A stretch of DNA of 64,000 bases from Escherichia coli (lineage in GTDB: Bacteria; Pseudomonadota; Gammaproteobacteria; Enterobacterales; Enterobacteriaceae), in NCBI RefSeq assembly GCF_044324785.1, contig NZ_CP172127.1; one strand, given 5' to 3'. The notes under the pieces are model-generated. The model saw nothing but the letters and a program-made list of their open reading frames with translations. It was not told where the DNA came from and searched no databases. The position numbers were made by a program, and so were the translations under genes. Shown one piece after another: positions 58,295 through 64,000 of the stretch (position 1 is the first letter of the stretch; each line of letters begins with the position of its first letter).

Positions 58295-58384
58295 GGAGAG
58301 ATGCCGGAGCGGCTGAACGGACCGGTCTCGAAAACCGGAGTAGGGGCAACTCTACCGGGGGTTCAAATCCCCCTCTCTCCGCCA
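58295..58384 (+). tRNA. serU: tRNA-Ser (CGA)
   Basis: GGAGAGAUGCCGGAGCGGCUGAACGGACCGGUCUCGAAAACCGGAGUAGGGGCAACUCUACCGGGGGUUCAAAUCCCCCUCUCUCCGCCA, 90 nt with long variable arm. Confidence 0.95.
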
Positions 58385-58469: not shown

Positions 58470-59498
58470 TCACGGGTTTCTGCTCAGAACTGTGACATCC
58501 AGCACCGGAATATCCAGAGTCGGAGTTACTGCGGGTTTGCGATCATACGTCAGCACTTGCGCCTCTGTTTTGTGACCAGAGAACAACTGCTTTTCTTTAC
58601 TGCTTCCGTCGTAGTCTGAGATCCCCTTCGCTTTTAAATCGTGAAACGTTCCCGTAATCGGGTAGCCCAGCTTTTCACTTGCCGCCGCCCTGGCTTTACG
58701 CCAGATATCGTTAAATCCGGTATAGCTGTATTGCCCGCCATATTTGTTACAGACCACGAAATGTTGTCCTCCCAACGATTTCGCCTGCTCAAGTGCGAAC
58801 GTCAGTCGCTCTGAATACTGTTTGATCTGCTTTTTGCCAGTCTTACCCTGTTGGATAAACAACCCCTTACTCATTACCTGATCCCACGTCAGCTTTCGTA
58901 TATCGCCGATCCGCGTGGCGCACAGATAGGCGATCTCCATCGCGCACTGTAAAACGGGAGATGCCTCCTGATAAATTGCGATATATTCCTCGTCCGTGAA
59001 ATAGTAGTCGCGGGGCTTGAGGGAAAATTTACTGACGCCCTGGCATGGATTCCCTTTTACGTATCCGCGTTCGTATCCCCAGCGGAATACTCGCGACATA
59101 CTGGCTTTTTCATGGTTCGCCTGTGTTTTGCTTTTCAGCCCCCGCTTGTCCATATACAGCCGCACGTGAGCAGGTTTTATGTTGTCGGCTTTCATTTTCC
59201 CGAACGCGGCGAGTAATTTCTTCTGGTGCTGCAGATAATCCTTTTGTGTACGCTGACCGAGTTCCAGATAGTAGGTGCTGTTGAGAAATTTGTTCCAGAG
59301 TTTACTGAACGTCATGACATCAATAGCATCATTCAGGATCTCTTCGTATTTCACCCATACCTGAGCAATTGACAGATCATTAATTTTACCCAGCGTAATA
59401 CACTCTCGGGGCGTTGGTTTGAAATAATAGCTGTATTTGTTTTTATAAACGCGGGGTGGCAGCTTATTATCTTCCGCGTTTTTTCGTGTTCTGCTCAT
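58470..59498 (-). CDS. int: Lambda-family tyrosine integrase
   Basis: 342 aa; N-terminus MSRTRKNAEDNKLPPRVYKNKYSYYFKPTPRE.. resembles the lambda Int arm-binding domain; C-terminal ..TGTFHDLKAKGISDYD.. catalytic region. Confidence 0.85.
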   Translation of the reverse strand: MSRTRKNAEDNKLPPRVYKNKYSYYFKPTPRECITLGKINDLSIAQVWVKYEEILNDAIDVMTFSKLWNKFLNSTYYLELGQRTQKDYLQHQKKLLAAFGKMKADNIKPAHVRLYMDKRGLKSKTQANHEKASMSRVFRWGYERGYVKGNPCQGVSKFSLKPRDYYFTDEEYIAIYQEASPVLQCAMEIAYLCATRIGDIRKLTWDQVMSKGLFIQQGKTGKKQIKQYSERLTFALEQAKSLGGQHFVVCNKYGGQYSYTGFNDIWRKARAAASEKLGYPITGTFHDLKAKGISDYDGSSKEKQLFSGHKTEAQVLTYDRKPAVTPTLDIPVLDVTVLSRNP

Positions 59499-59713
59499 CA
59501 GATTGCATCAAAATTAGGTTGTTCTTCTTCGGCTATCTGCGCGGGTCTGGCTCCGGACAGCGCGGCGTTTACATGCGTCCACGTGACGCGAGGTCGCCCG
59601 TCGCGGCGTTTTACATAAGAGATCCCGGCACGGGTCAGGGCACCGCATTGTTTTGACGGGAACTGGTAACCGGTCAGTTCAACCAGTTCCTGGTCTGTTA
59701 GCAGGTCGTTCAT
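59498..59713 (-). CDS. xis: Excisionase-like protein (DUF4224-type)
   Basis: 71 aa MNDLLTDQELVELTGYQFPSKQCGALTRAGISYVKRRDGRPRVTW.., immediately upstream of int with overlapping start/stop. Confidence 0.65.
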   Translation of the reverse strand: MNDLLTDQELVELTGYQFPSKQCGALTRAGISYVKRRDGRPRVTWTHVNAALSGARPAQIAEEEQPNFDAI

Positions 59714-59903
59714 GGTCTTTCCTCATAATGCGGTAAATCAGGTCATCTGCCGCCTTGCAGGCACGGGCAATATCAGACTCGGTCAAAGTCTGTTTCCTGA
59801 CGCTGGCCGAGAGTCGGCCAATTTTGATATCAAATGCGGAGAGCAGAGTTGCTCCCGGTTGCCATCGCAGCATTGTGATCCTCCGGTTACTGGTGAATCG
59901 CAA
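59679..59903 (-). CDS. Hypothetical prophage protein (74 aa)
   Basis: ORF in the prophage early-left region; no family recognised. Confidence 0.3.
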   Translation of the reverse strand: MRFTSNRRITMLRWQPGATLLSAFDIKIGRLSASVRKQTLTESDIARACKAADDLIYRIMRKDHERPANRPGTG

Positions 59904-60105: not shown

Positions 60106-60674
60106 TAGCGTACCCTCAGCGAACGTTCGCCGTGTTCCAGATGTGCGCCTGGTACCGGGTTTAATAATTCGGCTGGTGGTGTTTCTCCACGCGCCAGTAT
60201 TTCGGCGGCAACCGCCTCCGCAGATTCAATCACTTCTTTAATGGCTCGTTTGTTTGGTGTAATAACCGTTTCTACATCAACAAGTGACACGCCTTCATAC
60301 TCATCCGGGATCTTATCTTTGCTATCGATAATTACCCGGATAGCCCCCTGTGCATCAGTAAATGTGTTTTTTGCGGTTTTCAGTTTATCCAGGCCAGCAG
60401 CTTGCAGGCAGGCGAGCATATGCTTCCGAATTGCTTTTTCCTTGCCTTCAAAGGACGTCTTACGGGTAGCCAGGCGAGACATTTCTTCAGCGCAGGTACT
60501 GGCATTGCCCTGTAAATTACGGCAGATGACCATCATGGCGTCCAGTTTGTCTCCCAGTTCTCCTTCCATACCTTCAAGCGTGTCGGCGATCATCTCTGGC
60601 GTCAGTTCGTCGGAGGTTTCCAGCAGGTCAATCAGGCTGGCGTATTCTTTTGCAATAGCGATAGCGGTGCTCAT
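60105..60674 (-). CDS. Hypothetical prophage protein, possibly Siphovirus Gp157-like
   Basis: 189 aa, acidic with a coiled-coil-like N-terminus; sits directly downstream of the large gene whose C-terminus looks like a ssDNA-annealing protein. Family assignment is from memory only. Confidence 0.4.
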   Translation of the reverse strand: MSTAIAIAKEYASLIDLLETSDELTPEMIADTLEGMEGELGDKLDAMMVICRNLQGNASTCAEEMSRLATRKTSFEGKEKAIRKHMLACLQAAGLDKLKTAKNTFTDAQGAIRVIIDSKDKIPDEYEGVSLVDVETVITPNKRAIKEVIESAEAVAAEILARGETPPAELLNPVPGAHLEHGERSLRVR

Positions 60675-62884
60675 GCTGTTTGCTCCTGTGCGGCGGCGAG
60701 AGCGGCGAGGCGTTCGGTTTTGATTTCATTCAAACGGCGCAGGCGCGAACCAAGATAAGTTGAATACTCCTTATCACCTTTGGATTCTGCGGCCTTGCGG
60801 TGAACTTCTACTTCCCGCGCAATAAGGCCATAGACTTTATTAACTTCATTGGGGGTTACGGCTGCAGCCAGTGTTTTGGCAACACCTGAGAGTCGTTCAT
60901 CCAGTTCTTCACGCAGTCGGGTAGCATCCTCTACTTTCTCGCTTGCCTTCTTAATACCGTATTCTGTATTCAGCTCGGCGGTGTAGGCACTATCGTTATG
61001 CATATCCATATAAACATCTGCCGCAAATCCCAGATGAGATAGTGCTTTGACGGTGGCATCAGTAAGAGACTTTTTGGAGGCCTCTTTTTCCATTACCAGT
61101 GCCCCTTTGTTATTTTTTGATATGTAATCCGTGTGGCCATATGACGGAATAAATCCTTTCACTCCGTTCCAGATGTACCAGAGATCTATCCGGATGGTGT
61201 GTACTGACAGGCAGAACAGGGAACCGTCAGCATCCCTGACAGGTTTTTGTCCAATAATTTTCCCTGTCTGATCCTGTATAGGTTCAAGTAATGGCACACC
61301 GCGATCCACTCGCTCCTCCTTGATTTCAACTCCCCAACCAATGCCTTCCATTCCCAGCACTTCAGTCGCACGCATCAAAATATATTGTGCGCGTATGGAG
61401 TGCAGTCCTGCACCGTAATCATTATGTGTGACATACGCAGGATCGGTCCGCTGAACGCGATTCCAGATAGCCAAATTTGCTTTGCTCTGGTCATCATTCA
61501 TTGCTGACAGATAATGCTCCATGCGAATTGATGCAGTTTTTTCCTCGGCATGGATCCGCTCAACCAGCGCGTCAACGTTTTGCACCAGGTCTTTTACCTG
61601 CTCGCTAAGTTTTTCTTGTGGAGGAGTCTCTTCTGTCGGGGTAATAGCTGCAGGTTCCCTCTGTGATACTGCGTTATTTTCAGGTACGTCATACACATGG
61701 CGAGGCGTGACAAACTGCTCACGCAACTGCTGCAAACTACGTTCTCCAGCATTTGCTGCTTCGCTTTTTTCGCCCTGATTTGAGGGTGTTTCTGACATCA
61801 TTCCATCAATTGAGAATCGCCCGCCGCCGTGGTTGGTGACTTTTACATCATCCTTTGGTGCTGTTTCCTTTGGCTTCTCTTCAACAGCATTTGCATCACG
61901 CTGCCCGTTAGCTTGCAGCCAGTTGTCGATGTGACTGCGCAGGGATTGCGGGAAGTGGTACGTGTCTTTTGCGGGGGCGCTCTGAATAACACCGAATACT
62001 GATGCGCGGTCATAGGCAAGGATCTGATCCGTTGTGCGCAAGGCCATTGACCAGCGTTTAAAATCCTCCCGATCCTGGCTGATTATTTCGTCTGCCGCTT
62101 TCAGGACGCTGGGGGTGATTTTTTCCGGGCCAACGGGTAACAGGGCGCAGGCAATTTCACGATCCAGTGTGGCGTGAGTCTGTTTGTAAGGACGTGCGGA
62201 CGGTTTTACCTCCGGCAGCATTTCATCGCGTTTACCGGGATTCTCTACCCATTTTTTTATAAATTTGGAGATAGTCCAACTGGTCGGGTTTTGTTCCTGG
62301 GTATCGCAACTTGCCAAAATTGCATGTATCAGATTATTCAATCCAGCAATATGCATGTACTCGATGGGCTTACACGCCACCATGGCATCAAGAACGATGC
62401 GGTTAAACGCGTCAACCTCATCCTCACTGTCAGTATCACTGTTGTCGAGCATCTCCAGGTATTCACGCGTCTGCGCAAGCAATTCACTGTCGACTTCGTT
62501 GGCGTCGTGGCTGAACAGCAGAACGGCGGCGAATCGTTCACGAGCCGGCAGTTTCATCAGGTCGTTAACCTGTGCGATATCTGCTGAACCGCTATCTACA
62601 ACGGGGGTGTTAACTACCCATTTTTCGCCATCAAAACTGTGTTCTGTGGCGAACGTCTCATCAAACTCACCAACGCCTGGGCGCGGTTGGCCCGGGGCAT
62701 CTTCCCAGATTTTAGGTTTGAAATAGTTGTCGCCGTGGTCAGGGTAGGCTTCCCACAATTTGCCGATGATGATGTTCTCGGCAACTTTTTTGTTAGGGGC
62801 GTCGATGGCGATGGCCAGCGCCGGGATCGCGCCGTTTTTGAGCGCGCCTTTTTTCGCTTCTAACAAGCCGTTAAAAATGGTCAT
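60671..62884 (-). CDS. Large prophage early protein (737 aa); C-terminal third resembles Erf/Rad52-like ssDNA-annealing proteins
   Basis: Strong SD (GAGGAAAG) before the ATG; C-terminal region ..GIGWGVEIKEERV..KKSLTDATVKALSHLGFAADVY.. has the signature typical of phage SSAPs; N-terminal about 450 aa unassigned. Confidence 0.45.
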   Translation of the reverse strand: MTIFNGLLEAKKGALKNGAIPALAIAIDAPNKKVAENIIIGKLWEAYPDHGDNYFKPKIWEDAPGQPRPGVGEFDETFATEHSFDGEKWVVNTPVVDSGSADIAQVNDLMKLPARERFAAVLLFSHDANEVDSELLAQTREYLEMLDNSDTDSEDEVDAFNRIVLDAMVACKPIEYMHIAGLNNLIHAILASCDTQEQNPTSWTISKFIKKWVENPGKRDEMLPEVKPSARPYKQTHATLDREIACALLPVGPEKITPSVLKAADEIISQDREDFKRWSMALRTTDQILAYDRASVFGVIQSAPAKDTYHFPQSLRSHIDNWLQANGQRDANAVEEKPKETAPKDDVKVTNHGGGRFSIDGMMSETPSNQGEKSEAANAGERSLQQLREQFVTPRHVYDVPENNAVSQREPAAITPTEETPPQEKLSEQVKDLVQNVDALVERIHAEEKTASIRMEHYLSAMNDDQSKANLAIWNRVQRTDPAYVTHNDYGAGLHSIRAQYILMRATEVLGMEGIGWGVEIKEERVDRGVPLLEPIQDQTGKIIGQKPVRDADGSLFCLSVHTIRIDLWYIWNGVKGFIPSYGHTDYISKNNKGALVMEKEASKKSLTDATVKALSHLGFAADVYMDMHNDSAYTAELNTEYGIKKASEKVEDATRLREELDERLSGVAKTLAAAVTPNEVNKVYGLIAREVEVHRKAAESKGDKEYSTYLGSRLRRLNEIKTERLAALAAAQEQTA

Positions 62885-62914
62885 TGGTCTTTCCTCATTA
62901 CAGGTCAGTGGTCT

Positions 62915-63235
62915 TTAGTAGGGGATTTCATCAGTATCTGGCGTGTATTCGATGCAAAGTAACTGCTGGATTTTGTCATCGATAGCAGCAATACGCTGTT
63001 GGGCGTCGGCGACTGTTTTCTGTTTTTGTTCACGCAGCTGCTCGACCTGTAAACCGATGATGTCGATTGGCTGGGGCTGGTTGACGGTAATTTCAATTTC
63101 GCGGCTTTCCAGAAGGATGTACCTGTCTGGAAAATTTTTTGACATATCAACCGTCGCAATAAGCAGCTTTTCATGGCTGAAAGTTGAAGTTGCATAATGA
63201 ATAAAGAGTGTTACTGGGATGGTGCGCGCTTCCAT
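62915..63235 (-). CDS. Hypothetical prophage protein (106 aa)
   Basis: ORF MEARTIPVTLFIHYATSTFSHEKLLIATVDMSKNFPDRYILLESREIEITVNQ..; no family recognised. Confidence 0.35.
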   Translation of the reverse strand: MEARTIPVTLFIHYATSTFSHEKLLIATVDMSKNFPDRYILLESREIEITVNQPQPIDIIGLQVEQLREQKQKTVADAQQRIAAIDDKIQQLLCIEYTPDTDEIPY

Positions 63236-64000
63236 AGCGACTCCTTGGTGATGTATACTCGGGACCGATCAGCGAATATTGATCAGCTTCCATAGCGTCA
63301 GTGTCGTTGGTCTTTCCTCATCACAAGTTTGGTCACTTGTGATAAATCCGAATGGTTTGGTCGCCGTTCGGGGTAACTGGCCCGCCTTGTGCGGGTCTTT
63401 TGCTATCTAAAGGGTGCCGGTTACGTTTCCGGCGTCGTTATGTTTCCATCACGACCGTACGGGGCTGGTCTTTCCTGTTTTGAGCTGGTCAGGCTCATGG
63501 TCAACGCTGGTCAGGCGTGGTACTTCCTCCGGTCTTTCCCTGGTGTCACGCTGCGGGTTTGGCCTCTCCTGTTGGGGACTCAGGCACAGCGATAAAACCT
63601 GGCTGTGTGAAAAAATGGCCCATCGTGCGGACTGGGCAAAGACTAAACACAGCAAATTGATGATGGGCGCCCGGAATCGAACCGGGTAACGGGCAGGGAG
63701 TTCCCGTTAAACACCTGTTCACCACAACCGGGAGCGCACTCCGCCATTTCAAAATTTAACGACAAAGCTCAAAGTTGAGTCGATGAAGTGCGCTCTCGTG
63801 TTGTAGCCAGGACTCTTCCCTGGTGGTCACACCGTATCGCCTTGATGGTGAATCAATCGCTCATACCTGGCTGTGGCTTGCACATTCCGGCTACCTGCTA
63901 TGGAGACAACGCGTTAAGGCTCCGCTTCCATCCAGACCGCTTCGACACATGTGCCATATGCCGGTGAAGTCTTTCCCTCTGTCATCGTGCTGTCGGCGAC

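Follow-up and report, generated by a model that had tools for sequence, protein, structure and literature searches.

Short antisense RNAs with a promoter and an intrinsic terminator of their own lie inside the early operons of phage P22 (sar) and phage lambda (OOP); sar overlaps the ribosome-binding site (RBS) of ant, and OOP overlaps the end of the cII gene. The CI RNA of P4 pairs with several repeated complementary sites (seqA-seqC) in the untranslated leader of the early transcript. In T4 it is a protein, RegA, that represses translation of many early mRNAs via a sequence shared by their initiation regions. The c4 RNA of P1/P7 is a small phage RNA with an immunity function, which blocks translation by pairing around an RBS; the OOP RNA is described in the same source (PMC12197685). 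The present analysis concerns a stretch of 64,000 nt of the Escherichia coli chromosome (contig NZ_CP172127.1, assembly GCF_044324785.1; the window) and, within it, a region without open reading frames (ORFs) at 63240-64000. This region belongs to a lambdoid prophage integrated beside tRNA-Ser(CGA), of which every gene within the window is on the minus strand, here called the operon strand. The region is predicted to encode a small RNA on the plus strand (63267-63401), which probably pairs with a ribosome-binding cassette common to several phage genes and blocks their translation.

A predicted small RNA gene on the plus strand

A sequence-only reading of the window had pointed to a recurring motif, GGTCTTTCC, and to a palindrome in this region. 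The recurrence is real and non-random. The four copies listed are exact (62886, 63309, 63467 and 63531, 1-3 nt off the positions given), and a fifth is found at 59714, while 0.35 copies are expected in the window (about 14-fold enrichment) and none of 100 shuffles gave five copies. The palindrome is exact as well: ATCACAAGT at 63320-63328 and ACTTGTGAT at 63335-63343 enclose the loop TTGGTC, and the 9-nt arms are 100% complementary. It was also correct that no convincing ORF covers 63240-64000, since RefSeq annotates nothing at 63236-64000 among the listed carrier E. coli genomes, and the stretch was rightly taken as non-coding and as regulatory. The small minus-strand ORFs that had been proposed for inspection were looked at and are not conserved among relatives.

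The palindrome is part of the following set of features (SL, stem-loop).

63255-63260, plus strand: candidate -10 element TATACT of the small RNA promoter; all 27 representatives have TATAnT
63267-63401, plus strand: predicted small RNA of ~135 nt with four stem-loops; the 5′ end is placed from the -10 element
63267-63312, plus strand: SL1, in which the 5′ GAUCAG pairs with UUGGUC
63307-63319, plus strand: UUGGUCUUUCCUC, exact complement of the cassette GAGGAAAGACCAA; includes the motif copy at 63309
63313-63319, plus strand: 7-nt linker UUUCCUC, predicted to be single-stranded
63320-63343, plus strand: SL2, the palindrome, with a 9-bp stem and the invariant hexaloop UUGGUC
63347-63372, plus strand: SL3, with a 10-bp stem rich in G.U pairs and a second UUGGUC hexaloop
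63379-63401, plus strand: SL4, intrinsic terminator GGCCCGC-CUUGU-GCGGGUC-UUUU, flagged on the plus strand by a terminator scan

The fold of 63267-63401 has a free energy of -57.1 kcal/mol (z = -5.8). The same four-stem shape is predicted in 27 of 27 representatives, in which the loops of SL2 and SL3 are unpaired with a probability of ~1.0. The pairing of GAUCAG with UUGGUC in SL1 sequesters the 5′ half of the 13-nt complement. UUGG in the hexaloop presumably fits the YUNR U-turn motif typical of antisense recognition loops. A terminator hairpin with a U tract is present in all representatives; in most relatives it reads GCCCAC-UUCG-GUGGGC followed by 6-7 U, which covaries with CCCGC-N5-GCGGG-U4-5. 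In some relatives TGATATAAT or TGATATACT at the candidate -10 element constitutes an extended -10. The RNA measures 112-136 nt in relatives. Together these features predict that 63267-63401 encodes an unannotated small RNA with its own promoter and terminator.

For the analysis of base pairing, the pattern GACCAA-N8-10-GAGGAAAGACC retrieved more than 120 viral contigs with 87 distinct variants of the surrounding 255 nt, and 27 representatives (<97% identical) were used for a structure alignment; the neighbouring 106-aa protein diverges to 41% identity in this set. Among 24 distinct versions of the SL2 hairpin the loop is always TTGGTC and the arms differ by compensating changes, giving 198 Watson-Crick pairs, 15 G.U pairs when read on the plus strand and a single A.C. 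Both sides have changed at eight of the nine stem pairs (27 representatives). Over the whole alignment 96.3% of the cells pair vs. 84.7% in shuffles (0/500), and the covariation score of the alignment structure is 0.454 vs. 0.227. Controls in which the 3′ partner was slid by 1-3 columns gave 44-54% pairing. Pairing also depends on the strand: on the plus strand it reaches 96.3% with 74 G.U cells, on the operon strand 83.8% with 4 G.U cells, and for SL3 alone the values are 95.3 and 70.7%. Such strand-specific G.U mismatches mark a single-stranded RNA hairpin. A palindrome bound by a protein would conserve its sequence and show no strand bias, and the reading as an operator therefore fails.

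The palindrome had been called operator-like. In fact the pairing of the stem is conserved and its sequence is not, and the phage has its real operators elsewhere, in the form of a 21-bp site unrelated to the palindrome (TTACAATTTGTATTTGTAATG type) with three copies, one overlapping the leftward PL-like promoter and two between the cI-like and cro-like genes. The palindrome occurs as a single copy, not as multiple copies over the -35/-10 elements of an early promoter beside the repressor gene. Judged by its pattern of substitutions, the palindrome is an RNA hairpin of the plus strand and not an operator.

Rfam at gathering score gave nothing at 63267-63401 in a search of the whole window. At E ≤ 10 the C4 model (RF01695) had no match and isrK scored 14 bits (gathering score 50); across 62800-64000 this threshold returned weak matches at chance level only (RprA with 37 bits, Trp_leader, isrB, isrK).

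SL1 of the window lineage contains an insertion, GCUUCCAUAGCGUC, which is complementary over 12 nt to the sequences around the start codons of the 106-aa gene and the cII-like (YdaT) gene. Specific to this lineage is a duplication, inside the small RNA gene, of the region where the 106-aa gene starts (CGCTATGGAAGC; 63227-63246 and 63285-63304). It creates a non-conserved 40-aa ORF and the second 12-nt complement in the RNA. This ORF (63171-63293) is confined to the lineage with the 24-nt duplication, and the codon after the cassette varies between ATG, ACG and ATA.

The non-coding region is also matched by host spacers. A type I-E spacer (clustered regularly interspaced short palindromic repeats, CRISPR) of E. 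coli strain 2020CK-00188, present twice, matches 63304-63336 exactly with an AAG protospacer-adjacent motif (PAM) and covers the seed and SL2. A second exact type I-E match, from strain XH992 with an ATG PAM, lies at 63501-63532. Thus, hosts acquired immunity against this prophage family at these non-coding sites.

A common ribosome-binding cassette and its candidate genes

The hexaloop UUGGUC and the linker UUUCCUC together are the complement of GAGGAAAGACCAA, in other words of the recurring motif. The sequence GAGGAAAGACC(A)(A)AUG heads the same four genes in every relative examined, despite differing flanks.

62885-62898, minus strand: cassette AUGAGGAAAGACCA directly before the AUG of the exonuclease gene (phrog_2489); 15 nt of contiguous complementarity
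59714-59724, minus strand: GAGGAAAGACC cassette directly before the AUG of the excisionase gene (phrog_1266)
Third candidate target: 72-74-aa gene (phrog_2465), which ends 3 nt before the replication-initiator gene
Fourth candidate target: 136-223-aa gene (phrog_5148) after the helicase gene

A relation of the motif to ribosome binding had been suspected before, and the link to the GAGGAAAGACC ribosome-binding region stands; within the range then considered, a single copy is a working RBS. This copy at 62886 reads GAGGAAAGACCA-AUG and serves the 737-aa exonuclease-family gene. The one at 59714 is the RBS of the DUF4224 excisionase gene, and the one at 63309 is RBS-like and is followed by ACG and by no conserved ORF. 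That the motifs might be only shared RBS context with no evidence of repressor binding had been named as the outcome that would refute the earlier reading. Taken literally, this is what was found, and the shared RBS context itself proved to be of interest.

Duplex energies were calculated for the 20-nt seed against the initiation regions of L001, a genome 99.9% identical to the window which was also used for the gene layout past the window end. The four cassette-bearing regions gave -25.6 to -32.5 kcal/mol vs. -5 to -17 for the 23 others. Uninterrupted complementarity extends over at most 15, 13 and 11 nt in three of the four targets and over no more than 8 nt in most other genes; two others reach 12 nt via the lineage-specific insertion in SL1. 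The excisionase cassette of L001 carries one substitution (8 nt contiguous), and the copy in the window is exact.

The cassette is confined to phages that carry the RNA. Of 124 phage loci that had been gathered for another purpose, the five with the RNA signature (55.6 kb) contain 24 copies of the 11-mer and the other 119 (1.02 Mb) contain none, nor is there any in the 58 kb of chromosome in the window. Furthermore, in loci where the RNA site is UAGG instead of GAGG, the first base of the target cassette is not G in 7 of 15 cases (U in five), while it is G in 85 of 85 cassettes of all other loci. This shared G-to-U change of the RNA site and five targets is suggestive of co-variation between seed and cassette. 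A full-text literature search for the cassette or the seed returned no relevant paper, the matches being unrelated primers.

Position within the leftward early operon

Besides the prophage the chromosomal part of the window contains the his leader, four tRNA-Asn genes, mtfA and tRNA-Ser(CGA) at 58295-58384. The prophage genes are arranged as follows.

58470-59498, minus strand: integrase gene
59498-59713, minus strand: DUF4224 excisionase gene
Between the excisionase and exonuclease genes in the prophage gene list, minus strand: Gp157-family gene
60671-62884, minus strand: gene of the 737-aa exonuclease-family protein, AUG at 62882-62884
62915-63235, minus strand: 106-aa gene (phrog_2479), whose 5′ leader and Shine-Dalgarno (SD) sequence are overlapped in antisense by the predicted small RNA gene and its promoter

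In L001 the region past the window end comprises a 74-aa gene and a cI-like repressor gene, followed by divergent cro-like, cII-like (YdaT), replication-initiator and helicase genes. A PL-like promoter (TTGACC-17-TAAAGT) is located directly left of the repressor gene. Its position and the gene order place the small RNA gene ~1.1 kb downstream of PL, within the leftward early operon and not upstream of the prophage operon as had been supposed.

An unannotated 65-aa coiled-coil ORF (MSELEQLKDELALLKKELK...) was found at L001 9844-10038 (plus strand), 79-273 nt past the window end. It has an RBS, matches phrog_20080 (E = 7.5e-32) and converges with the first (74-aa) gene of the PL operon. The stretch truly free of genes therefore measures ~840 nt and not ~1030 nt.

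The two remaining motif copies fall into the untranslated part of the PL transcript, where further small hairpins lie between them.

63467-63475, minus strand: partial cassette copy CAGGAAAGACCAG in the untranslated PL transcript
63531-63539, minus strand: partial cassette copy CAGGGAAAGACCGG in the hairpin CCAG-GGAAAGA-CCGG, untranslated PL transcript
63482-63518: two copies of GCTGGTCAGGC, in the small hairpins GAGC-UGGUCAG-GCUC and CGC-UGGUCAG-GCG

Relatives have 2-5 such cassette copies, often a perfect 13-mer, and the number shifts by insertion or deletion of whole units. The copies at 63467 and 63531 may be extra pairing sites or decoys for the RNA. Three other interpretations of the repeats were dropped. 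An origin of the GGTCTTTCC copies as decayed units of the structured element E (see below) was abandoned as a search with nhmmer revealed no additional diverged E copy in the gap; a sponge for CsrA, which would consist of GGA-rich repeats, does not agree with the conserved unit, which is GAAAGACC and not ANGGA; and as to DNA iterons, the replication genes lie elsewhere.

Proposed mechanism and alternative explanations

We consider it probable, if far from certain, that the RNA is a trans-acting antisense RNA which blocks translation of the cassette-bearing phage genes. A UUGGUC loop would nucleate pairing on GACCAA of the cassette, and pairing would then spread over the SD sequence GAGGA and the start codon, so that the 30S subunit would be excluded. 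The cis target of the RNA would be the leader of the 106-aa gene, and its trans targets the genes for the exonuclease and the excisionase, the small gene abutting the replication initiator and the gene after the helicase. If made constitutively, the RNA would dampen excision, recombination and replication at the post-transcriptional level, and would thereby give the lysogen a second layer of immunity or shut off early genes. Within the untranslated PL transcript, the cassette copies would act as competitors for the RNA or add pairing sites.

Several points weigh against this proposal. No convincing -35 element is present, and a scan with the sigma-70 consensus gave no promoter at the small RNA gene. 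The transcript, its 5′ end and its abundance are deduced from the sequence, and the same applies to in vivo pairing, to the direction in which the RNA regulates, to what the extra copies do and to the biological outcome. Every predicted fold ties up half of the 13-nt complement in SL1, and pairing therefore has to proceed by strand displacement. Being antisense to the local cassette copy, the RNA is complementary to it as a matter of course. That the other copies are invariant could be due to a preference for a strong RBS, to a sequence that marks a recombination boundary or to a protein regulator. Co-variation between seed and cassette rests on two to three related lineages and one nucleotide, and eight targets there keep G. 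Finally, the upstream hairpins that bear the partial copies have 3 G.U vs. 2 A.C, by which the strands are not separated.

The alternative that survives best is an RNA that is real but, in the manner of sar in P22 or OOP in lambda, acts in cis only, antisense to the leader and SD sequence of the 106-aa gene. The cassette would then be conserved for another reason, be it an optimal RBS, a recombination sequence at module boundaries or a protein repressor of the T4 RegA type. The overlap of the RNA gene with the 106-aa leader and of its -10 element with the SD region agrees with this explanation, the complementarity to the local cassette would be automatic, the cassette stands at gene starts with mosaic flanks, and 8 of 15 targets in the UAGG lineages keep GAGG. 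It is hard to explain in this way why two invariant UUGGUC hexaloops, the complement of the 3′ half of the cassette, are kept on varying stems, why the cassette is confined to RNA-carrying phages, and why non-G target variants occur only alongside the matching RNA variant. We regard a purely cis-acting RNA as unlikely, although it deserves to be taken seriously.

A second alternative needs no plus-strand RNA at all. The hairpins would be part of the minus-strand mRNA leader and function as a nut/boxB-like antitermination site or as a translational operator of the 106-aa gene. Indeed, the region lies in the 5′ untranslated leader of this gene, with an operon-strand terminator upstream of it, what we take to be the boxB loops of P22 and lambda look similar to the loops GACCAA and GAAAGA, and by our own reading a hairpin adjacent to the SD sequence pairs better in the minus sense in some variants. 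Nevertheless, only 83.8% of the cells pair in that sense (70.7% in SL3), with 4 G.U cells vs. 74 in the plus sense. The hairpin with its U tract acts as a terminator on the plus strand only, no boxA was seen upstream of the hairpins, and an N-like protein did not turn up either; the product of the first gene in the PL operon (74 aa) matches no family and is not arginine-rich. A leader function of this kind thus appears quite improbable.

A DNA operator, with the repeated motif as repressor- or protein-binding sites controlling the prophage operon, would suit the perfect 9-6-9 inverted repeat and the about 14-fold enriched motif, but is hardly credible given that the arms vary and keep only their complementarity, that the G.U bias is strand-specific, and that the palindrome is a single copy ~1.1 kb from PL in a phage with 21-bp operators of its own at PL and in the cI/cro gap.

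Other RNA elements of the gene-free stretch

The remainder of the ORF-free stretch contains further features on the operon strand.

63789-63963, minus strand: element E, a pseudoknotted structured RNA of 175 nt
63654-63730, minus strand: degenerate tRNA-like remnant with an intact T arm, CCCGG-UUCGAUU-CCGGG, at 63671-63687
63610-63637, minus strand: intrinsic terminator GCCCA-10 nt-UGGGC followed by CAUUUUUU; relatives have a stronger, covarying stem

Element E is widespread among phages of enterobacteria; it is present in more than 120 viral contigs and in the unrelated phages SPN1S, Tyrion, D6 and SJ46 (both P1-like) and SopranoGao. It contains an H-type pseudoknot and the invariant 20-mer GGUAGCCGGAAUGUGCAAGC; 95.4% of the cells pair vs. 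83.0% in shuffles (0/500), and both sides have changed at 17 of 29 pairs. No Rfam 15 family matches E at gathering score, and a full-text literature search for its conserved 15-mers gave unrelated primers and no relevant paper. A tRNA gene lies near E in 41 of 127 loci, always co-oriented and usually tRNA-Arg(UCU), with its start ~45 nt downstream. E is often followed by a terminator and then by a protein gene. Its possible roles are those of a leader, of an antitermination element or of a stable RNA encoded in a phage tRNA operon. E as leader of one conserved protein was rejected, as clustering of the ORFs beside E gave only spurious ORFs.

The remnant at 63654-63730 is treated as a decayed tRNA because it occupies the slot of tRNA-Arg(UCU) in relatives; it has no ARAGORN call, and Rfam tRNA-Sec scores 19 bits (gathering score 47).

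A second recurring non-coding module with tRNA-like ends, GUGGUGAAUGCGCAGGCUGAUGCGC ... GCCGGAGAUCAGCACCGGCCACCACA, was observed in the phage loci L004, L006, L008, L044 and L089, ~160-330 nt downstream of E in the RNA sense. It is not in Rfam. The module is preceded by a boxA-like spacer, GUGCUCUUUCCGUUGUGG, which also stands before tRNAs and before E, and this common spacer suggests processed multi-RNA operons. In Enterobacter phage Tyrion an Rfam int-alpA match (L004 1947-2011; 44 bits, gathering score 35.8) is located downstream of the region containing E.

Distribution and implications

At least 80% of the ORF-free region is present in 447 of 5,426 complete E. coli genomes, with many ST131 (sequence type 131) strains among those listed. 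Besides E. coli the full architecture was found in Serratia marcescens, S. grimesii, S. quinivorans, a Citrobacter and Escherichia whittamii, and the RNA family is confined to prophages of Enterobacterales. A pattern scan of genome contigs gave 88 matches, a number close to the chance expectation for 17 specified bases in 298 Gb; five of them, from Enterobacterales, have the hairpin architecture. Among deposited phages only the 'Stenotrophomonas' phages BUCT708 and BUCT709 carry the RNA, and a hypothetical protein is annotated over it.

According to these data, RNA genes are densely packed in ~0.7 kb for which the listed E. coli genomes have no annotation. If the proposed mechanism is true, this family of Escherichia, Citrobacter and Serratia prophages controls excision, recombination and replication post-transcriptionally with one RNA and a portable cassette. 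This would be a compact RNA-based immunity beside the protein repressor, with a bearing on prophage stability and spontaneous induction, and the pair of cassette and RNA would be a ready-made orthogonal translational switch.

A wider proposal joins all elements of the stretch. One RNA would govern a private regulon for excision, recombination and replication in both early operons via a standardised SD cassette, the copies in the PL leader would be a sponge that times the release from RNA-level immunity after induction, and E would represent a new widespread class of pseudoknotted RNAs of phage tRNA and non-coding RNA operons. In this full form the proposal is tentative, and we think it possible rather than probable.

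Comparison with known systems

With OL and OR of lambda the locus has in common an inverted repeat in a prophage regulatory region. However, OL and OR conserve sequence and stand in multiple copies over promoters beside the repressor gene, whereas the hairpin described here conserves pairing only. T4 RegA resembles the proposed system in being a single regulator for a sequence shared by the initiation regions of several phage genes. RegA is a protein, while the candidate regulator here is a complementary RNA encoded beside its sites; a protein that reads the cassette is possible.

The 2-5 cassette copies in the PL leader are reminiscent of seqA-seqC of P4. In contrast to the RNA studied here, for which the strands differ, the P4 CI RNA is a cleavage product of the very transcript it targets and brings about premature termination.

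The likeness to c4 of P1/P7 (RF01695) lies in RBS-directed pairing and in complementary bases displayed in loops, which in the present case are predicted from the sequence. There is no similarity in sequence or model: Rfam finds a true C4 elsewhere in the window and none in this prophage region. Moreover, c4 is processed from the strand of its target operon and acts at one locus (icd/ant), whereas the RNA here is antisense, has its own terminator and has four dispersed candidate target genes. The genuine C4 antisense RNA (62 bits; 36413-36501, minus strand) belongs to another mobile element in the window, which also carries an EFASI RNA (101 bits; 34851-34978, minus strand); both are unrelated to the RNA discussed here.

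The likeness to sar and OOP is in position, as the predicted RNA is also antisense within an early operon and overlaps an RBS region. The difference is in reach: sar and OOP act on the overlapping gene only, whereas here the hexaloops and the linker match a cassette on genes of both early operons.

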